In this document: one piece after another, positions 4,495-58,015 of the stretch
Layout: each line of letters starts with the position of its first letter
Position numbering within the stretch: position 1 is the first letter of the stretch
IMG/VR virus record: IMGVR_UViG_3300030108_004301
Span: 1-58,368 of that record
Source: a virus
Lineage: Duplodnaviria; Caudoviricetes
Length of the DNA: 58,368 nt
Reading direction: 5' to 3' (one strand)
Translations under genes and position numbers: made by a program
Notes under the pieces: model-generated
Told to the model about the DNA's origin: nothing
The model's database searches: none
What the model saw: only the letters and a program-made list of their open reading frames with translations

Positions 4495-6878
4495 TGGCTG
4501 AAGAAATAGAACAAATTAAAAAACCATCAAATGTAGAAAAGAGTTTAATTTCTAATGATGTGTTGAGTGAATTTTCTGTTGAGGAAGAAAACCTTCAAGG
4601 ACAGGAAGATGATTTTTTAAATATGGATGTTGAAGTTGAAACAGATGATGAAGGTGGAGCAGAAGTTACTTTTGGTGAACAAGAAGAAGAGACAGGTGTA
4701 GAACCTGATGATTTTTTTGGGAACTTGGTCGATGGACTTTCTGAATCAACTTTATCAGAAATATCCCGTTATGTTATGACTTCTGTTGAAGAAGATAAAA
4801 ACAGTCGTAAGGATTGGGAAGACAGTTACACAAATGGATTAGATTTATTAGGGCTGCGTTATGAAAACAGAACAGAACCTTTTGATGGTGCTACTGGTGT
4901 AGTGCATCCAATATTAAATGAGGCAGTTACACAGTTTCAGGCAGGAGCGTATAAAGAAATGTTACCTTCATCGGGACCTGTTCGTGCTCAAATTGTAGGT
5001 GAACCTACTGCGGAAATAGAAAAACAGGCACAGCGAGTAGAAGATTACATGAATTATCAAATTATGTATGAAATGGAAGAGTACGAACCAGAGTTTGACC
5101 AGATGTTATTTTTCTTAGGGTTGGCTGGAAGTGCATTTAAAAAAGTTTATTTTGATGATTTACTCAAAAGACCAGTAAGTAAGTTCATACCAGCAGAAGA
5201 TGTGGTCGTACCGTATACTGCTTCTGACTTACGATCGGCTGAGCGTGTTTCTCATGTCATAAAAATGAATGAAAATGAACTGCGTAAGTTACAAGTGAGT
5301 GGTTTTTACAAAGATATGGAACTAAAAGGCGGTTTAACAGAGGATTCTTCGCCCATTGATGAAAAATATGATGAGATTGAAGGTAAATCAACAAACTCTT
5401 ACGAGGAAGAATACACTTTATATGAGTGTCATTGCTATTTTGACCTTGAAGAGTACCCTGACAGGAAGGTTGATGGCGAAAATTCAGGCATAAAACTACC
5501 TTATATCGTTACAGTTTGTTCAGACACGCAAGATGTACTGAGTGTAAGAAGAAATTTTTTGCCTGATGACGCAAAAAAAGACAAAATACCACATTTTGTG
5601 CAATATAAGTTCACTCCTGGACTAGGTTTTTATGGTTTTGGACTAATTCACTTGCTTGGTAACCTTTCTAGAACTGCAACTGCTAATTTAAGACAATTAA
5701 TTGATGCAGGAACGCTATCAAATATGCCAGCAGGATTTAAAGCGAGGGGTTTACGCATAGCTGATGACTCAGAACCTTTACAACCTGGAGAATTTAGAGA
5801 TGTTGATGTTCCAGGAGGTGATTTACGCACAAGTTTGATGGCTTTACCTTACAAAGAACCTTCAGGAACGCTGTTTCAGCTGATGGGTTTTGTTGTACAG
5901 TCAGCTCAACGGTTTATTGGAACAACTGATATTGGTGTAGGTGACGGAAACCAAGAAACACCAGTCGGTACAACTATTGCGTTGTTAGAAAGGGGAGCTA
6001 GAATAATTTCTGCTGTCCATAAACGATTACACGCTAGTTTAAAAAATGAATTGAAGTTATTAGCACGATTATTTGGACAAGATCCAAACCCTTACCCTTA
6101 CCCTGTTGGTGTTGATGCACAAGTAAAGACTACAGATTTTGATGCTCGTATCGATATTATACCCGTTAGTGACCCTAATATTTTTAGTATGTCGCAAAGA
6201 GTAGTTTTAGCACAAGAACAATTAAAACTTGCGAGTGCTGCACCAGATTTGCACAACCTTTATGAATCATACCGTCGTGTGTATGAGGCGTTAGGTGTAA
6301 AGAATGTAGATCAGATATTAAAACCTCGCATGGTTCCTATGCCTAGAGACCCAGCCCAAGAAAACCAAGATGCCTCAGTTGCTGCGGCTGGTCAAACTAA
6401 ATTACAGGCATACCCTACGCAAAATCACGATGCTCATATCGCTGTTCATTTGGCGTATATGCAATCAAAAGTTGCTAAGATGCAACCAGCAGTTTTACTT
6501 ACTTTAGAAAAACATATTTTTGAACATATCGGTTTGAAAGCTCAAGTATTGGCTGCTCAACAACTACAACCACAGGAACAACAAAACCCAGATCTTGTTG
6601 CTTCTAAGGTAGCAGAAATACAATCACAGTTAATGCTTGATTATTTACAAAAGAATCCTCCGCAACCAGACCAAGAACCATTGGTGGCGTTAAAACAACA
6701 AGAACTTGCTCTTCGTGCTCAAGAACAACAAACAGATGCGTTCAACGAGCAACAAAAATTAAAACAAGAGCAAATGAAAACACAACAACAAGGTTCTATT
6801 GCTAGGGAACGCATACAATCTACTGAGGATATAGCCAATATGCGAGCTCAAATAGCTTTAGAAAGAACACGAAAATAA
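4494..6878 (+). CDS. portal protein
   Basis: 794 aa directly after terL. Motifs GSAFKKVY, GFYGFGLIH, LRQLIDAG and PVGTT.AL of P22-like portals, with a coiled-coil C-terminus. Confidence 0.9.
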   Translation: MAEEIEQIKKPSNVEKSLISNDVLSEFSVEEENLQGQEDDFLNMDVEVETDDEGGAEVTFGEQEEETGVEPDDFFGNLVDGLSESTLSEISRYVMTSVEEDKNSRKDWEDSYTNGLDLLGLRYENRTEPFDGATGVVHPILNEAVTQFQAGAYKEMLPSSGPVRAQIVGEPTAEIEKQAQRVEDYMNYQIMYEMEEYEPEFDQMLFFLGLAGSAFKKVYFDDLLKRPVSKFIPAEDVVVPYTASDLRSAERVSHVIKMNENELRKLQVSGFYKDMELKGGLTEDSSPIDEKYDEIEGKSTNSYEEEYTLYECHCYFDLEEYPDRKVDGENSGIKLPYIVTVCSDTQDVLSVRRNFLPDDAKKDKIPHFVQYKFTPGLGFYGFGLIHLLGNLSRTATANLRQLIDAGTLSNMPAGFKARGLRIADDSEPLQPGEFRDVDVPGGDLRTSLMALPYKEPSGTLFQLMGFVVQSAQRFIGTTDIGVGDGNQETPVGTTIALLERGARIISAVHKRLHASLKNELKLLARLFGQDPNPYPYPVGVDAQVKTTDFDARIDIIPVSDPNIFSMSQRVVLAQEQLKLASAAPDLHNLYESYRRVYEALGVKNVDQILKPRMVPMPRDPAQENQDASVAAAGQTKLQAYPTQNHDAHIAVHLAYMQSKVAKMQPAVLLTLEKHIFEHIGLKAQVLAAQQLQPQEQQNPDLVASKVAEIQSQLMLDYLQKNPPQPDQEPLVALKQQELALRAQEQQTDAFNEQQKLKQEQMKTQQQGSIARERIQSTEDIANMRAQIALERTRK

Positions 6879-37923: not shown

Positions 37924-38152
37924 ACCAAAAGTATATTATTTTAATTTAATCATTGACCACAAATAATTTGTCCGTGATATACTTTTTATTATACTAAATT
38001 AATTAAATTGTTTAAAAACTGTTTTTTAACAATTTAAAATATACGATATACAATATACAAAATTTCAGCTTCGCGAAACTATGTGATAAAATTTATTTAG
38101 TCTTGTTTAACGAAGTAGTGTATATTTAACAAACTGTAAGGAGGAGAAAGTC
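37924..38152. promoter_or_regulatory. AT-rich divergent intergenic control region (possible origin)
   Basis: Lies between the divergent helicase and the replication operon. TTGACC...GATATACT promoter-like elements; shares a motif block with 56951-57009. Confidence 0.45.
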
Positions 38153-44785: not shown

Positions 44786-45709
44786 TTGAACACAACTCCC
44801 CAAACATTATTTCAACAAGATAAAGTAGAAAGTTTTTATAATTGGATTAATGAACGCCACAAAATATATCAAAAAAGATTACAAGGTTATCCTCCTCCGT
44901 GGACTGATGACCCAATACTACAGAAATATAAATTCACAAACCCATTCAGAGAAAACGATCGTGTTACTGTATGGATGAGAAACAACTGGACAACACCAAA
45001 CGACAACAAAAAGAATGCTGCTGAAATTATATTTAATTGCTGTTTGTTTAGAATGATAGGCACTATAGAATTTGCTGAAGATCACGGTTGGGTAAAAAAT
45101 AATTGGAATCCAGAAAAAACTAAAAAAATAATAGAAGATAGGTTAAGTAAAAAACAAAGAACATTTACTGGAGCATATATAATTACGAATCAGGGTATTT
45201 CTGCACCTAAAAAAGATGTAGTTGTAGATGAGTTCCTTGTACCGATTTGGAAAAACAAAAATGCAATTGCTGAAAATGCAGCTCATTATCAAACATTACA
45301 AAAAACCCACGAAAAATTAGGTGAATACAAAGGGTGGGGAGGCGGTGGTTTTATGGCTTATGAAGTTGTTTCTGACCTTAATTATACCTCTGTTCTAAAC
45401 AAAGCAGCGGATCGTTACACTTGGGCAAATGCAGGACCAGGAGCAATACGAGGAATAAATAGAATAGAAGGTGCTAACTTAAAACGATCTATGAAACCAG
45501 AAATATCTAATCAAAAAATGCAAAAAATTTTAGATTTAAAGTATGTTTATACTGCCGAACACATTGATGTTGCTTCTGTCGATATGAGAACAATAGAACA
45601 CAGTTTGTGTGAGTGGGATAAATATGAGAGAGTAAGACTCAATCAAGGCAGACCAAGAAGTAAGTTTTCTTGGAGCCATAACAAAATAGATAGTGGAGGA
45701 GTAAGATGA
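44786..45709 (+). CDS. aGPT-Pplase1 / 5-hmdU DNA kinase helical-domain-like DNA base-modification protein
   Basis: ERH.IY..R..G...PWT.DPIL..YKFTN.FRE.DR, F.AYEV..DL, GPGA.RG and IEH.LCE.DKY motifs; TTG start. Confidence 0.82.
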   Translation: MNTTPQTLFQQDKVESFYNWINERHKIYQKRLQGYPPPWTDDPILQKYKFTNPFRENDRVTVWMRNNWTTPNDNKKNAAEIIFNCCLFRMIGTIEFAEDHGWVKNNWNPEKTKKIIEDRLSKKQRTFTGAYIITNQGISAPKKDVVVDEFLVPIWKNKNAIAENAAHYQTLQKTHEKLGEYKGWGGGGFMAYEVVSDLNYTSVLNKAADRYTWANAGPGAIRGINRIEGANLKRSMKPEISNQKMQKILDLKYVYTAEHIDVASVDMRTIEHSLCEWDKYERVRLNQGRPRSKFSWSHNKIDSGGVR

Positions 45710-47010
45710 AATTTCTAATTACTTTTTTTCAGATACAAGATTATGGTGGAATAATAAACCATACCGAATATTTAACAGCAGGACTTAAGGAACTAGGACA
45801 TACTGTTGATATAGCTATGCTTGTTCCAAAGCACGGAGTTGTAAGAACAAGTTTACCAAAAGATATAGAAGATAAAACTAAGTATTCAATAAACCCAAAA
45901 GGAACTAACCTTTATCACAATCAAGCTAGAGGTTGGTATGGTATGACCAAAATACCTTATTTAAATGAGTACAGAAAAAATAAGTTTAAGGAAGATTGTT
46001 CTAATTATGACGCAGTCATTTGGCAAATTCCTGTTCCTACACTCAGTAAAGAAAACAAAGGTGTAAAAGATTGGTATGACTTATATAGCACAGGAACTAA
46101 AAACATAGCTGTCATACACGATGGTAACCTACCAAACTTATATCCTCATTTAGCGAGTGTTCAAAATAAGTTTTATTCTATGATTTGTGTTCATGAATCA
46201 GCATTTGAATCTGCTGAAAACATACAAATACCTAGAATGTTAGTTGTAAACCCTCATGACATACAAAAACAAGGACAGTATGGACAAAAGAAGTTTGAAG
46301 AAAAAGATGGTTTAGTTGCCATACAAATATTCAAAGGGTGGAAAAGAGTAGACTCTTTAGTACGAGCTATACCTTTTATGAACAATAAAGAACAAAAAAT
46401 TGTTGGAGGAGCAGGAATAGAATATAGATATATGACTAGCAAAGAAAAGTGCAAACCAAAATACTTTGAATCAAATGGTTCCAGAATATGGGATAATGCC
46501 TTAGCAAGTGGAATGGAATATGTTGGTGTTGTTGATAATGAAAAAGTATTTAATTATCTAAACAATGCAAAAGTACACATAGACCCAAGTTGGTCAAAAA
46601 AATATCACGCCTTTGGTTCTCATTTTAATAGAACAACAATTGAAGCTATGATATCAGGTTGCTTACCTATCGCTACAGATTTAGGTATGGGTAATTCTGA
46701 TATATTTAAAAAGAATAAAAACTATGTAGAAATATCACACGAAGCTACACCAAAACAATTTGCAGAAATTGTTGACGATTGTTTACAAAATAAAAGTAAG
46801 TGGCAAACGATTACAGATAATAATTGTGAAAAGCTACAAGAGTTCGACATGAAAAAAGTAGCAGATGAATATGTTGAAATTATTAAAGGCGGCTATGATA
46901 CGAAAAAAATAAAGAATGGACTAAACAACAATGAAATTATTACAAAATGCAACGATAATTTAGAATTTTTTAATTTTGGATTCCGTATGGAGCTCCCTCG
47001 ATCTGATTGA
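45706..47010 (+). CDS. GT-B (GT4-like) glycosyltransferase
   Basis: N-terminal GG...H...L..GL...GH.V, K..KRVD.LVRA and C-terminal DPS....EAM..G..PIA motifs. Confidence 0.82.
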   Translation: MKFLITFFQIQDYGGIINHTEYLTAGLKELGHTVDIAMLVPKHGVVRTSLPKDIEDKTKYSINPKGTNLYHNQARGWYGMTKIPYLNEYRKNKFKEDCSNYDAVIWQIPVPTLSKENKGVKDWYDLYSTGTKNIAVIHDGNLPNLYPHLASVQNKFYSMICVHESAFESAENIQIPRMLVVNPHDIQKQGQYGQKKFEEKDGLVAIQIFKGWKRVDSLVRAIPFMNNKEQKIVGGAGIEYRYMTSKEKCKPKYFESNGSRIWDNALASGMEYVGVVDNEKVFNYLNNAKVHIDPSWSKKYHAFGSHFNRTTIEAMISGCLPIATDLGMGNSDIFKKNKNYVEISHEATPKQFAEIVDDCLQNKSKWQTITDNNCEKLQEFDMKKVADEYVEIIKGGYDTKKIKNGLNNNEIITKCNDNLEFFNFGFRMELPRSD

Positions 47011-47066
47011 GGGTGTTCCGCATACAAAACTACCTTGCTAATAATAATGAAAACACAGGAGGAAAT

Positions 47067-48062
47067 ATGGAACATATAGCGGCTAGGAATGTAAGTGACG
47101 GCCTTTACCTTACAAAATTAAGTCTTTTAGAAGTAGGGAAGAAAGAAAACACGAGAAACGGTTGGGTTTTAGAATTTCCCACTCCTTTTTGCGTGACATA
47201 TACTCATCCAACAGAAAGAGTTTTATTTTATCCAGAAAGAGATGCTAACCCTTTTTTTCATTTGATGGAATCTTTGTGGATGTTGGCAGGAAGAAATGAT
47301 GTTGAGTGGATTTCTAAGTATAATAAAAGGATTTCTGATTACAGTGATAATGGAAGAACATTTCATGGAGCATATGGACATCGGTGGCGTAATCATTTTA
47401 GGGGAGGACCAAAAGAGTTTAAAGATCAGTTAGACCAAGTTATGATTAGATTACATAAATTTCCAAATGATCGTAGGGCTGTTGTTTCTATGTGGGATCC
47501 TAATGTTGATTTAGTAATGCACAATGATGGAAAGGATTATCCTTGTAACACTCAAATATTTTTTTCTAAAAGAGGGAAAGTTTTAAATATGACAGTGATA
47601 AATAGAAGTAATGATATTGTGTGGGGATTATTTGGTGCTAATGCAGTTCATATGTCTATGTTACAAGAATATATGGCAGCTAGAACAGAAAGCGAAGTTG
47701 GAACATATATTCACTTTAGTAACAATGCTCACGCTTACTTGGATACATTAGAAAAAATAAAAGATATGCAACCAGATTATGAATCTTATTTAATTATTGG
47801 GGACGATGCTTCACAATACCACTCACAACCGTTAGTAGATAACTGGTTAACTTTTGATGAAGAGTTAGCATTATGGTTTAGGAATGAGGAGGTAAATGTC
47901 TTTGAAAATAAATTTCTTTCTCTTACAGCTTTTAGAGTAAGGGAGGGTTGGCACTTTTGGAAACAAAAGAATATAAACAAAGCTATCGAAATATGTAAAA
48001 CGATAGAAGATCGTGCTTGGCGTAAAGCGTGTGTGGAGTGGCTTGAAAGGAGGAACAAATGA
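47067..48062 (+). CDS. thymidylate-synthase-superfamily enzyme, probable dUMP hydroxymethylase
   Basis: RDANPFF, GAYG.RWR, DRRAV..MWD, catalytic YPCN, RSND..WG..GAN (Asn indicates dUMP specificity) and NNAHAY. AGGAGG precedes ATG 47067. Confidence 0.85.
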   Translation: MEHIAARNVSDGLYLTKLSLLEVGKKENTRNGWVLEFPTPFCVTYTHPTERVLFYPERDANPFFHLMESLWMLAGRNDVEWISKYNKRISDYSDNGRTFHGAYGHRWRNHFRGGPKEFKDQLDQVMIRLHKFPNDRRAVVSMWDPNVDLVMHNDGKDYPCNTQIFFSKRGKVLNMTVINRSNDIVWGLFGANAVHMSMLQEYMAARTESEVGTYIHFSNNAHAYLDTLEKIKDMQPDYESYLIIGDDASQYHSQPLVDNWLTFDEELALWFRNEEVNVFENKFLSLTAFRVREGWHFWKQKNINKAIEICKTIEDRAWRKACVEWLERRNK

Positions 48063-52893: not shown

Positions 52894-52973
52894 AATATGG
52901 TAGAAGTGACTTACTTAATCTTTATCCTGCTACTTATGATAGTAGCAGGATTTTGTGTGTATCATTTATTTAA

Positions 52974-53629: not shown

Positions 53630-53958
53630 GTAAAAAAACTACACCTTGATTATAAAATAAGTTATATTATTATAAAAAAGGTAAGTATGATGAGTGAGCA
53701 ATTATTTCACAAAAAATTTTACGAAGAGTTACTTGAATTAAAAATAAGTAAACTCACGCAAGAGGAATACAAAGATGCTGTTTCTTTTTTGTATCACAGA
53801 TATTTTCTCACAAGCAATAAGAATGATTGATGCTGGTAAATTTGTTGAGGAAATGGATAACTTGTGTAAAAGGTGTTTTGGTCATACGGAGTGGAGAATA
53901 CACGCAAACTCTGATGAAACACTTACCATCGTATTTATAAATAAGAAGGGAAATACTA

Positions 53959-54129
53959 ATGCCGAAAAGTAAAGGATATAAAAAGCGAAAAACATTAGGT
54001 ATCACAGAAGATGCCTTCTCTGCTTTGGCTAAACTATCTAAAGAATTAGAAAAAAGTATGGGTTTTAGAGTAACTCAGAACGATGCAATACTTTATTTGA
54101 TAAAACAATACGCCAACAATAATGAGTAG
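53959..54129 (+). CDS. putative ribbon-helix-helix DNA-binding protein (56 aa)
   Basis: RKTLGITEDAFSALAKLSKEL...TQNDAILYLI beta-alpha-alpha pattern; AAGGG RBS. Not in the ORF track. Confidence 0.5.
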   Translation: MPKSKGYKKRKTLGITEDAFSALAKLSKELEKSMGFRVTQNDAILYLIKQYANNNE

Positions 54130-54475
54130 AATAAACGGACATAATCCAAGAAACACAAAAAGTTTATTTGAAAGGATACAAACTATCTTTGATCGTAACC
54201 ATTTAGATGTGTTTCACGAACCTATCATGCACCACATAGAAGAGTATTCTTTTTTAGCAAGGTATGATGACGATGAAGATTATGTGCAAAGAATATTAAT
54301 CTTGTTTCATAAGTACATTGACCCCAAAACATCAAAATCTCAAAGAAAAGCTATGGACTTGGTATTTAAAGTGTTTATGGGGATATCTTTGGTTGACCTT
54401 ATGAGCACTTGTAGAGACCAATATGACTGGCAAACTCTAGAAGATTTTGAAATAGGGGGAGGTGAAAAGCAATGA
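54122..54475 (+). CDS. hypothetical protein
   Basis: 117-aa coupled ORF. Confidence 0.65.
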   Translation: MSRINGHNPRNTKSLFERIQTIFDRNHLDVFHEPIMHHIEEYSFLARYDDDEDYVQRILILFHKYIDPKTSKSQRKAMDLVFKVFMGISLVDLMSTCRDQYDWQTLEDFEIGGGEKQ

Positions 54476-54690
54476 TAGAAGCAGTAGTAGGCGGACTTTT
54501 AAGTGTCCTTGTCAATACAATACAAATACAAAACGCTGACTTTTTTTATTGGAGAGCTGAAAATGAAAAAAATAAAGAGTGCCGTTGGGAGTATGTAGGT
54601 AAGACACCAGCAAATCCCAACGAACCATCTCTTGCATTTTTTGATAATGTGTGGTGGAAGCACATTTGTGAGGATAAGCCCGATGATTAA
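54472..54690 (+). CDS. hypothetical protein
   Basis: GGAGG RBS; C.W.YVG motif. Confidence 0.65.
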   Translation: MIEAVVGGLLSVLVNTIQIQNADFFYWRAENEKNKECRWEYVGKTPANPNEPSLAFFDNVWWKHICEDKPDD

Positions 54691-54786
54691 TTTTATTCTT
54701 ATATATTGTCTAGCTCTCTACATACTTTATGTTATCTACCGATAACAAAGGAATGTATTTTCAAGGTGTAATTTAGTATATTTAAT

Positions 54787-54830
54787 ATGTACAGTTTTTG
54801 TTTTTTTGTAATAGTTCAAAAACTGTACAT
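54787..54830. repeat. perfect 14-bp inverted repeat
   Basis: ATGTACAGTTTTTG (54787-800) / CAAAAACTGTACAT (54817-830). Confidence 0.9.
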
Positions 54831-55012
54831 TGGAGTGGTGTATATCCCAGTCCCACTAAGTCTCTTACTTGAGGAAAGTTTGAGGCGGTCCCGATGAGTG
54901 GCGGATAGCTAACAGATGGCGAGAGTTGACGGACTTAAGATTGTGGGTGGCAAATATCTTGGCGTGTTGGATTACCAGAAGTTCAAGAAGTAAGTGTTAG
55001 CTCATCACTCCA
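54831..55012 (+). ncRNA. candidate ~180-nt structured non-coding RNA
   Basis: GC-richer, ORF-free intergenic block closed by a 10-bp terminal helix, with several long-range complementary segments. Confidence 0.6.
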
Positions 55013-55047
55013 CATATTAACATTAACCATTCTATAAGGAGAAAGTT

Positions 55048-55257
55048 ATGGAATTAAAAAAATATGTAATCATTACATACGCTCAAGCAACTTTCAAGTA
55101 TTATGTTGACGCTAAGTCAACAAAAGATGCGGAAAGCAAGTATCTTAGAGGGTGGGCTGAAATACACAACGATGGTATGCCAACCGATGTTCACGATGAA
55201 CAGATTGATGAAATTTACTGTGATACTTCTACCCACAAGAAAGTGAGGTTAAAGTGA
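55048..55257 (+). CDS. hypothetical protein
   Basis: AAGGAG RBS; ATATTAACATTAAC leader. Confidence 0.7.
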   Translation: MELKKYVIITYAQATFKYYVDAKSTKDAESKYLRGWAEIHNDGMPTDVHDEQIDEIYCDTSTHKKVRLK

Positions 55258-55478
55258 GTAAGCAACCAAAACCAACACGAATAAGTATTGAGTTTCCTAG
55301 TGAGGAAGCAGCGATTCATTGGTACAAAAGGTATGTTCCAAATTATATACAAGCCGACTCAGCTTTATTTAAAAACGATGCTTTACTTGACAAAGCAATG
55401 AAAAATAAATGGGTTATTAAATCTGAAACATTCAACGGTTTCCGTGTCGAGTGGAAAGATGAATGGATGTGGTTATGA
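55254..55478 (+). CDS. hypothetical protein
   Basis: GAGG RBS; overlapping GTG start. Confidence 0.6.
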   Translation: MSKQPKPTRISIEFPSEEAAIHWYKRYVPNYIQADSALFKNDALLDKAMKNKWVIKSETFNGFRVEWKDEWMWL

Positions 55479-55961
55479 GTAGAAAATACACAATACATTG
55501 GGATGTAGAACAAATTACTAAGATCCTACAAAAAGGGTATACTGGTTCTTTTTCTTCTGAGGAAGAAGCTGAGCACACTATTGATAAAGTAGTTGACAGT
55601 ATAGCCCACGACACTATTTTTAATTATAAAGTAACGAGGGAGTGAGTAATGCTAAATTTCCAAGTTCCTAACATTGAAGGTGCTCTCAAGTGGCTAAAAA
55701 CTTGTCCGTACGAATATACTATCTCATCTATGCAAGGTGGGTTCATTCATGTCAAAATATTCATCCCTATGAACAAGGAGGTAAAAATTGAAGAGAAGTA
55801 AAAAGTGGATTCAAGCACAAGCCGTGGACATTAGCAAAGGAATAATTGAAGATCACAAGTGGGATTATTTACAAGACCACCTTTACGACGAAACACAAGA
55901 AACTCGTGATGCTGTTTCTTACGAAATGTCTATTTTAAAAATTAAACCAAGGAGGTAAAAA

Positions 55962-56249
55962 GTGAAAAATGACAAACCCTACACTCTCGGTGAAGCCGAT
56001 GTTCTGGTTCAGGATTTGCTCCGCACCAACAAGCAATATCTAAAAGTATTTCAACCTGATCACCCGTATGGTGATGATCACAACACCGACTATGTTCAAC
56101 TGTTCATGGTTCTTAAAGTTCTGGCTCTCAGGGTTCCTGAAGTGTCAGAATATATACAAAAACAAATCGACTGGATGCACCAACAACTAGCCAAACAAAC
56201 TGTCAAGCGTAAAAAACAGACCAATTTAAGCACCGTCAGACAGTCTTAA
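55962..56249 (+). CDS. hypothetical protein (coding sequence GTTC/GATC-rich)
   Basis: AGGAGG RBS before GTG. Confidence 0.65.
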   Translation: MKNDKPYTLGEADVLVQDLLRTNKQYLKVFQPDHPYGDDHNTDYVQLFMVLKVLALRVPEVSEYIQKQIDWMHQQLAKQTVKRKKQTNLSTVRQS

Positions 56250-56368
56250 ATACTTTTGTAATGGTTTAGTACCTTATAAAAATAGATGTACTGGTGGTGC
56301 TTATTTTATAACGATTAAAAAAATGTCGTTCACGAGTTATAAATACTGTACATCTTTTATAAAATGTG

Positions 56369-56394
56369 TATACTGATATCATGCCATTTGGCAT
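56369..56394 (+). promoter_or_regulatory. -10 element (TATACT) plus ATGCCA-TT-TGGCAT palindrome
   Basis: Same palindrome type and spacing as upstream of the paralogue at 2109-2122. Confidence 0.6.
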
Positions 56395-56418
56395 TTTTAA
56401 ACAACCATTGTAGAAAGG

Positions 56419-56850
56419 ATGGTAAACATGAGTAAAATAGCTCAACTATCGCCTACTCAGGCAAAACCAACTGTAAAAGTTGCTGAACTTATAGTAAAAG
56501 AGGATGAACTCTCTTACGAGCAAATTTTTCAGTTTGTCAAACAACACGCTGGAGGTAACGAGGGCAATGTAAACATTGTTCCTCTTCCAAATGTTGATCT
56601 TGATAATAAAAAACCTGTCCCCTTTGGATATGGCGGCAAAAAAGACGGTGTGAGAGCCAAAATTCAAAACATGATACTTAAGGGTATTAAAGGTGACCAC
56701 ACTCTTAAAACTATGCTTGATGTGACCTGCAAAATGTTTGGTCACTCCAAGAAAAAACCTTGCGTCCTACACGCACTAATGCACGGAGGCTACAGTCCTT
56801 CTAGCAAATTTTGGCTTACTCCTTACATCAAATTAGTTGTAAAGTCATAA
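56419..56850 (+). CDS. hypothetical protein, paralogue of 2154..2639 (true start may be 56428)
   Basis: GAAAGGA RBS, motifs shared with the 2154 protein, followed by a UUCG hairpin. Confidence 0.85.
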   Translation: MVNMSKIAQLSPTQAKPTVKVAELIVKEDELSYEQIFQFVKQHAGGNEGNVNIVPLPNVDLDNKKPVPFGYGGKKDGVRAKIQNMILKGIKGDHTLKTMLDVTCKMFGHSKKKPCVLHALMHGGYSPSSKFWLTPYIKLVVKS

Positions 56851-56860
56851 CATAAACTGT

Positions 56861-56886
56861 GGGGGAAGGGCTTCGGCTCTTCCTTC
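56861..56886 (+). terminator. stable cUUCGg hairpin (terminator or processing signal; weak U-tail)
   Basis: GGGGGAAGGGC-TTCG-GCTCTTCCTTC. Confidence 0.6.
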
Positions 56887-57067
56887 AAGTTTCAAGTTTG
56901 CTATATAGTAGTAAAATGAAATAAGTGTAAAATCAAATTTTAACTTTCTCCAATATACAATATATAGCTATATCCGATATATTTTGAAAACTATTTCAGC
57001 CACGCGAAAACAATCGACTTTGAATTTAAATTTGCATCTTTTCAAAAACTCTACTATTATACAAAGT

Positions 57068-57941: not shown

Positions 57942-58015
57942 TTTATTTTTTTACTTCTTGATTTTTGTTGGTGTTATTATTTTAATGTAATACTAACAAA
58001 AACAAGGAGTTATTC

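Follow-up and report, generated by a model that had tools for sequence, protein, structure and literature searches.

A conserved intergenic element of an HTVC023P-type pelagiphage with the properties of a folded plus-strand RNA, possibly the leader of a small-gene cassette

What is the long ORF-free stretch that lies about 2 kb upstream of TerS in this phage genome, and does it act as an RNA? The window (the whole stretch of DNA that was analysed, 58,368 nucleotides) is a complete record of 58,368 bases with a CheckV completeness of 99%. A sequence-only reading of it had proposed a structured phage RNA of about 180 nt with several crossing helices at 54831-55012. In this study, we found that the element is non-coding, that its substitutions keep the pairing of a plus-strand RNA and that it is present in RNA libraries. 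That part of the proposal was upheld, but the multi-pseudoknot topology was left unsettled, as the core shows one-sided changes only. As RNA, the region 54787-55012 (226 bases) appears to consist of a 14-bp 5' hairpin followed by a closed multi-helix domain.

The phage and the setting of the element

TerL shares 61-64% identity with its counterparts in phage 023Pt_psg01 and Pelagibacter phage HTVC027P, and 58% with that of HTVC023P. Based on these identities, the source phage is assigned to the HTVC023P-type pelagiphages, and the nearest isolates point to a SAR11 host. The sequencing runs holding the region are marine/seawater metagenomes, and about 14 DNA runs contain at least half of its sequence words. 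The record is circularly permuted, because contigs of relatives bridge window positions 58014 and 258. The element lies between the lysis/DNA-metabolism block and TerS, amid small genes without known function (Table 1). The intergenic gap that contains it, 54691-55047, is one of just two plus-strand ORF-free gaps of at least 200 nt that are unexplained by a minus-strand gene.

The other gap (1695-2035, 341 nt) holds clustered GGTTCTC-like repeats and GATC-containing palindromes in its first part and is very AT-rich in its second part; it is a possible packaging or replication signal. A PF18723 5-hmdU DNA kinase domain (E 7e-54) and a thymidylate-synthase-like protein are encoded at 44786-45709 and 47007-48062, which suggests that the DNA of this pelagiphage may contain hypermodified thymidine. 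In the divergent intergenic region by the sole minus-strand gene (SNF2 helicase), a 31-40-nt motif was found at 38020-38059. It reappears upstream of TerS in three relatives (L078, L080, L104) with 85-90% identity and may be a shared promoter or regulatory motif. In many HTVC023P-type relatives (L045, L050, L053, L058, L065, L078, L084, L087, L104 and others), TerS is immediately preceded by an ORF-free region of 400-540 nt, at about 4600-5000 of each locus. Sequence similarity is shared by 16 of 17 of these regions, and just ~60-90 nt match the window, at 56894-56983.

The block had been described as GC-richer than its surroundings, and this was borne out (0.467 in 54850-54999 versus 0.27-0.40, about 0.36, in neighbouring windows). 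The five helices of the sequence-only reading, P1 to P5, are present in the sequence exactly where they had been drawn, as is the perfect hairpin abutting position 54831. The 3' strand is uninterrupted and finds its partners in three separate 5' segments (P3, P2 and P1). A repeat search independently recovered three inverted repeats, including the 14-bp hairpin. A sixth helix, P6, was added by us and is also found in the minimum free energy (MFE) fold and in the RNAalifold consensus. The 5' hairpin is not terminator-like, with four G-C pairs out of 14 and UUGGAG instead of a U-tract, and the terminator scan did not call it. An outer helix, 54782-90 / 55012-20, was rejected since it is not conserved in relatives.

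Table 1. Positions of the features discussed, as numbered in the window
Feature	Position	Strand	Remark
TerL	3007	+	
Portal	4494	+	
Primase, helicase and family-A DNA polymerase	39.8-50.5 kb	+	
GH108 lysozyme	50968	+	
Metatranscriptome contig	54486-54941		
Metatranscriptome contig	54605-54835		
Promoter-like hexamers (putative)	54706-54733	+	TTGTCT 54706-11, 16-nt spacer, TATGTT 54728-33; found by eye
Palindrome GTTATC-TACC-GATAAC	54731-54746	.	overlaps the -10-like hexamer; occurs once in the window; a match also arises in 15 of 100 shuffles
5' hairpin	54787-54830	+	14-bp stem 54787-54800 / 54817-54830, 16-nt U-rich loop
Metatranscriptome contig	54804-54969		
Core structured domain, closed by P1	54831-55012	+	182 nt; at least 95.6% identical in 9 of 9 copies
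P1, 5' strand	54831-54840	+	UGGAGUGGUG 54831-40 / CAUCACUCCA 55003-12; 10 bp, one G-U
P4 and P5, 5' strands	54852-54862	+	P4: CCCAC 54852-56 / GUGGG 54943-47, 5 bp; P5: UAAGUC 54857-62 / GACUUA 54932-37, 6 bp
Metatranscriptome contig	54863-55001		adaptor sequence flanking
P3, 5' strand	54864-54870	+	CUUACUU 54864-70 / AAGUAAG 54988-94; 7 bp; crosses P2, P4 and P5
P2, 5' strand	54907-54914	+	AGCUAACA 54907-14 / UGUUAGCU 54995-55002; 8 bp
P6 hairpin	54967-54986	+	UUGGAUU 54967-73 / AGUUCAA 54980-86; added in the follow-up analysis
Contiguous 3' strand of P3, P2 and P1	54988-55012	+	
Shine-Dalgarno sequence and 69-aa gene	55036-55257	+	AAGGAG 55036-41; gene 55048-55257, first of the cassette
GC-rich UUCG-loop hairpin with U-rich tail	56858-56885	+	after the 143-aa gene; found by eye; not listed by the terminator scan
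TerS	56984	+	

Distribution, conservation and known families

Homologues were collected via the flanking 72-aa and 69-aa proteins, which gave 23 distinct IMG/VR contigs. The element was present in five of these 23, one of them cut by the contig end, and four different 20-22-mers of the core matched only the same five IMG/VR contigs, with the context always identical. A scan of metagenome contigs with an 18-mer gave 29 loci, of which five carry the element; one was already known, so four are new, and their context is the same. The other 24 loci match the 18-mer alone and were set aside as chance. The alignment contains nine full copies, seven of them distinct, and one metatranscriptome contig contributes no variant positions beyond these. 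Genome-wide, the carriers are 86-97% identical.

Searches with nhmmer, using the core and a profile of five copies over 110 loci, returned the known carriers only, with none among 75 further TerS-linked loci (L038-L112). A covariance model of the element matched the window alone among 95 sources (697,455 bases), with 243 bits, and it matched none of ten near-complete distant relatives including Pelagibacter phage HTVC027P. A 20-mer of the element had no match in the GTDB genomes, and the element had no blastn match in INPHARED. In all ten loci with distant homologues of the 72-aa gene, plus L008 with a homologue of the 69-aa gene, the genes are tightly packed without a gap. Because the homologues of the flanking genes sit in gapless arrays in the distant relatives, the non-coding block is taken to be an insertion that characterises a single sub-clade of the HTVC023P-type pelagiphages.

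In relatives within the sub-clade, one or two more non-coding modules separate the core from the 69-aa gene. The additional 100-200 nt in L004, L005, L006, L007, L113 and L118 begin directly after the last base of P1 (55012). They comprise L006:2756-2951, the same stretch in L007, L118 and L113, and a shorter form, L005:2865-2967. In module B of these relatives, a hairpin and an A-rich run are accompanied by a predicted H-type pseudoknot (AAGAGG / CCUCUU), in which the loop GGUAGUUG would pair with the downstream CAACUACC. Module B has no Rfam match and was not found outside the sub-clade.

The identity of the core is 95.6-98.4% in all lineages, and no other local segment reaches 95.6% identity in every lineage. 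In the L029/L031 lineage, the upstream genes and the core both fall inside a 97% identical block (53949-55007), with 86% for the 69-aa gene and 91% for the next genes downstream. In the L113/L032 lineage, identity is about 0.5-0.8 in the upstream genes, 0.88-0.98 in the windows that hold the core and the 69-aa gene (54800-55279; 0.93-0.98 for the two together) and about 0.8 in the next genes. Thus, in each lineage the coding sequence on the more diverged side has changed more than the core. Mosaic exchange could give the same picture if its breakpoints fell at the core edges, and the core together with the 69-aa gene may represent a single mosaic block that was exchanged recently, not one kept by selection.

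An alternative is that the block is a DNA-level feature, such as a regulatory or recombination linker between mosaic modules, or a young insertion that looks conserved through the close kinship of its carriers. The close similarity of the carriers, the recombination breakpoints at both core edges and the lack of a homologue outside the sub-clade agree with it. On the other hand, the lower divergence of the core relative to the more diverged flank of each lineage does not, nor does the presence of a non-coding block of 357-560 nt in a phage genome whose genes are tightly packed. The substitution pattern, described below, bears on it more directly.

The statement that the element belongs to no known family held: none of the 4227 models of Rfam 15 reached its gathering score in the whole window. 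At E<=10, the region 54600-55200 gave only Flavo-1 (14 bits versus 42) and, opposite the hairpin on the minus strand, mir-4798 (18.9 bits versus 75), and the relatives L003, L005 and L006 gave only chance matches to microRNAs. ARAGORN found no tRNA or tmRNA in the window. A retron-type origin was searched for with the PF00078 reverse transcriptase, which had no match in the 58-kb record and matched the control genomes. No riboswitch expression platform was found, and 54300-55300 contains no terminator-like site. The antisense search revealed no target of at least 13 nt within the phage genome, and one 12-mer versus 0.6 expected. Two further candidates were rejected. A miniature inverted-repeat transposable element does not fit a single copy in the genome, always in the same context and with no GTDB match. 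The GGCG/UGGCG repeats (four copies of GGCG), considered as binding sites, are a post hoc motif, and in an unbiased 5-mer test 2873 of 5000 shuffles did as well.

The description of the block as ORF-free needs qualification, since ORFs of 36 and 25 aa lie inside it, neither of them conserved in L005 and L113. A small protein-coding ORF, either 54916-54993 (25 aa) or 54787-54897 (36 aa), might be thought to explain the sequence, as both ORFs exist in the window and L005 has an insertion whose length, 27 nt, is divisible by three. However, the 25-aa frame has no Shine-Dalgarno sequence upstream and runs into TAG after 19 codons in L005. Compared by eye across L113 and L005, it shows four base changes that replace three amino acids, two synonymous changes and the stop. 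The 36-aa frame lacks a start codon at the corresponding place in both relatives. We therefore give a coding explanation next to no chance. A coding remnant was also discarded, as tblastx of the intergenic region against the distant loci gave nothing for the core; the sole match with E < 1e-3 (E 7e-4, L038) was confined to the initial 55 nt of that region, which precede the element.

Folding and the pattern of substitutions

The folding energy of the core by itself was unremarkable. The MFE of the plus strand is -54.2 kcal/mol, which 25 of 200 shuffles also reach (z -1.14); z is 0.02 for the minus strand. The whole intergenic region reached z -2.83, with one of 100 shuffles as good. Long helices are marginally more numerous than in shuffles. 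The core has five helices of at least 7 bp versus a shuffle mean of 2.0 (100 of 2000 shuffles reach five), its longest helix of 10 bp is reached in 68 of 2000, and the 25-bp sum of its top three helices in 48 of 2000. The ordinary MFE of the core agrees with the DNA-level or neutral account introduced above.

The substitutions tell more. Our comparison is limited to seven distinct sequences, all at least 95.6% identical, and the five helices had been set before any variant was seen. Among the 43 pairs of these helices and P6, 11 vary on one side and remain paired, one is lost and none varies on both sides. For the five helices alone, nine of ten substitution events keep the pair. As the background we used the 2256 substitutions that separate the window from the same relatives elsewhere than in the element (1354 transitions and 902 transversions; C>T plus A>G 658 versus G>A plus T>C 696). 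With this background, the chance that a substitution keeps a pair is 0.32, and the probability of at least nine out of ten is 2.7e-4; with P6 included, 11 of 12 are kept (P = 4.5e-5). The kept pairs are alternations of G-C with G-U or of A-U with G-U, which on the minus strand would be C-A mismatches, and so the pairing holds only in the plus-strand RNA. The six remaining substituted columns sit in regions that are unpaired in this model.

The helices differ in how much they vary. In P1, four pairs vary on one side and all are still paired (UA/UG, GC/GU twice and GU/GC). P2 retained two one-sided changes, and its terminal A-U pair is lost in two of the seven distinct sequences. Two one-sided changes in P3 are both retained as U-G, a single C-G to U-G change in P5 occurs in L113, and P4 is invariant in the seven sequences. 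P6 also retained two one-sided changes, and the 27-nt insertion of L005/L004 falls in its loop. The unpaired G-rich stretches 54877-54906 and 54915-54931 are without variation.

The upstream hairpin shows true covariation. Among its 11 loop-proximal pairs in the seven sequences, four are changed on both sides and two more have U-G variants, with 100% of the cells paired; all four compensatory double changes occur in one lineage, L005/L113. The search for covariation among homologues that the sequence-only reading had proposed was thus partly rewarded, with four double changes in the hairpin and none in the core among the seven distinct sequences. These results support the view that 54787-55012 behaves as a selected plus-strand RNA structure. 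The DNA-level or neutral account is disfavoured by the substitution pattern, as it would explain neither the nine of ten pair-keeping substitutions, which make sense only in plus-strand RNA (P 2.7e-4), nor the compensatory changes in the adjoining hairpin, and we consider it decidedly improbable.

How the helices are arranged relative to each other is a separate matter. In the sequence-only model, P2, P3 and P5 form a local three-way junction with connecting strands of 17, 1 and 0 nt, and the distal ends are cross-connected, so that P2, P3 and P4/P5 cross mutually. The nested consensus from RNAalifold (66 pairs) keeps 11 one-sided changes and has four broken pairs. In this consensus and in the MFE fold, 54950-65 and 54988-55001 form a 3' hairpin. 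Because only one pair is broken in the pseudoknot model, the observed variation fits that model better than the nested fold, although weakly. An alternative register taken from RNAalifold, 54844-52 / 54939-49, is broken twice by variants. The changes in P1, P2, P3 and P5 are all one-sided (wobble), and several alternative nested helices fit the same changes equally. Energy does not separate nested from pseudoknotted structures, with -52.2, -53.3 and -43.0 kcal/mol for constrained folds versus the MFE of -54.2, and P3 as an isolated duplex has just -4.9 kcal/mol. We conclude that P1, P6 and the 5' hairpin are well supported, that P2, P3 and P5 are plausible and that P4 is a candidate helix, while the multi-pseudoknot topology of the core is unproven. 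The knotted topology, if real, would be an unusual fold of structural interest.

Transcription and possible roles

Metatranscriptome coverage, which had been proposed as a check, was found in assembled contigs: each of the four runs examined holds one short, low-depth contig within 54486-55001 (Table 1). In these four runs no contig covers 54400-54485 or 55002-55500, and the uncovered parts are not evidence of absence. The chance of such clustering is ~0.05 by a rough estimate, and the contigs carry no strand or end information and may include DNA carry-over; they weakly suggest that the element is transcribed and persists longer than its flanks. Two of the RNA contigs begin upstream of the putative promoter (54486 and 54605), which suggests read-through from upstream genes or a DNA signal.

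The promoter-like hexamer pair scores 8/12, below the 9/12 rule of the scan, and was uncalled. In the L005/L113 lineage, its -35 hexamer is unchanged, the -10 hexamer becomes TATATT and the spacer has four changes. In the L113/L032 lineage, the segment 54680-54739 is 0.88 identical versus 0.53-0.58 in neighbouring upstream segments. The centre of the overlapping palindrome, TTATCTACCGATAAC (54732-54746), is unchanged in L005 and L113; its first base changes from G to A and the flanking bases differ too. It is a possible operator or small hairpin. Downstream, the scan of 54300-55300 revealed no terminator-like site between 55012 and the 69-aa gene, and the hairpin at 56858-85 is probably the terminator closing the cassette 55048-56850. 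A second terminator-like hairpin, 52924-52951, with an 11-bp stem and a T-rich tail, precedes a pyrimidine-dimer glycosylase-like gene, and the two hairpins bracket the small-gene region.

Since a promoter-like region lies upstream, no terminator precedes the next gene and a terminator-like hairpin stands at the end of the cassette, we favour the reading that the element is the folded part of a long structured leader RNA heading the small-gene cassette, in preference to the ribozyme-like, protein-sponge or anti-defence roles named in the sequence-only reading, and we put this at a little short of an even chance. A sigma-70-like promoter with an overlapping palindrome (54706-54746) would drive the transcript, which would open with the 5' hairpin stacked against the self-contained 182-nt core, continue without a terminator into eight small genes (55048-56850) and end at the hairpin 56858-85. 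The end-closing helices would make the leader nuclease-resistant, so that it would outlast the coding part. The invariant G-rich unpaired stretches could be the contact surface for a factor that governs how strongly the cassette is expressed or how stable it is. The distance from the end of P1 to the Shine-Dalgarno sequence, 24 nt here and about 125-230 nt in relatives, speaks against a direct control over the start of translation.

The main rival to the leader reading, which we regard as somewhat unlikely, is a stable trans-acting RNA (an 'RNA moron'), in which the hairpin and core would be cut out of the primary transcript at the edges of the two terminal helices, accumulate and serve at a distance from their own mRNA, for example as a decoy of a host or phage protein. 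The closure by P1 and the stable hairpin before it would protect both ends, and the relatives place structured modules of 100-200 nt before the next gene and leave the core undisturbed. None of the four RNA-library contigs goes past 55001 into the downstream gene. The conservation of the core independent of either flank and its long invariant unpaired G-rich stretches are also in agreement with this rival. However, no terminator was found, the phage genome has no complementary target of at least 13 nt, the GGCG repeat is post hoc and not significant in the unbiased test, and the distribution is narrow. The data do not separate a structured leader from a released trans-acting species.

That the element is a self-cleaving or otherwise catalytic RNA, at work on the polycistronic transcript at this junction, has only a slight chance in our judgement. 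Such an activity would suit a fold that is compact, has several helices and possibly pseudoknots, and includes long unpaired stretches without variation. It would also suit the location between two gene cassettes and the sharp module boundaries at the P1 ends. However, the small self-cleaving ribozyme classes are shorter than 182 nt, and no ribozyme family of Rfam, including hammerhead, twister, HDV-like, pistol and hatchet, gave a match even at E<=10. In addition, the contigs 54486-54941 and 54804-54969 span the junction of the hairpin and P1 (54830/54831); a third contig ends 5 nt past this junction and none reaches 55012, so these edges are weakly probed.

A bolder reading, which we find unlikely, combines several of these elements into a new class of knotted phage RNA. 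Its 25-nt 3' strand would stack three helices, with the P2/P3/P5 junction cross-linked distally. A stable species of ~230 nt would be released in SAR11 infection and act in trans on the host, as a decoy of an enzyme or defence sensor, or as a catalyst. If this were true, the carrier would be a lineage of the ocean's most abundant phage group.

Comparison with known systems places the favoured leader reading in context. HK022 put RNA and the short leader transcript of the lambda late promoter are cis-acting structured phage operon leaders. The element resembles them in being a folded non-coding RNA that would head a tailed-phage operon, just behind a promoter-like sequence. Unlike put RNA, it is about three times larger, has no Rfam match and is limited to one sub-clade, and no terminators to override were identified. 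The pRNA of the phi29 family, about 120-174 nt, is phage-encoded, and its 5' and 3' ends form a closing helix. The element is likewise a phage RNA of ~170-180 nt with an end-to-end closing helix and, in the sequence-only model, a local P2/P3/P5 three-way junction. In contrast to phi29 pRNA, it has no match in Rfam, which we take to include a pRNA model, it is located 2 kb upstream of TerS and shows no connection with the portal, and its 58-kb genome encodes TerS, TerL, primase, helicase and family-A polymerase, compared with the 20-kb phi29-like phages.

IMES RNAs are orphan motifs of marine metagenomes and metatranscriptomes that have Rfam models. The element shares with them the marine origin, the presence in metatranscriptome assemblies and a conserved fold without known function; it differs in having no Rfam match, in being carried by phages and in its nine copies (seven distinct). 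Hosts of the SAR11 type use riboswitches heavily. Like riboswitch aptamers of 150-200 nt with junctions and pseudoknots, the element would be part of a 5' leader, as a closed domain of several helices whose unpaired stretches are invariant, but no expression platform or terminator was found, the distance to the RBS shifts by ~200 nt among relatives and no class matched.

If the favoured reading holds, the element is a selection-preserved folded RNA carried as an accessory module, and streamlined phages would trade RNA genes or leaders too, not only protein genes. It would also provide a defined object of 226 nt for probing, cleavage and pull-down work. The main texts of PMC9599517 and PMC12753301 contain no report of non-coding RNAs in this phage group that we found, and their supplements may list intergenic features. 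Among the titles returned from the wider full-text literature on pelagiphage non-coding RNA, we saw unrelated ones only.

The first product of the cassette, the acidic 69-aa protein, has no Pfam or PHROG family. Its AF2 model has a pLDDT of 74.7, and the best PDB folds were YkzG (E 0.14) followed by T7 Gp2 (E up to 0.27), both RNA-polymerase-binding proteins. The modelled fold raises the thought that the 69-aa protein might target the host RNA polymerase. Its nearest named Atlas cluster is DpnD/PcfM (0.89), which serves as a lead only.
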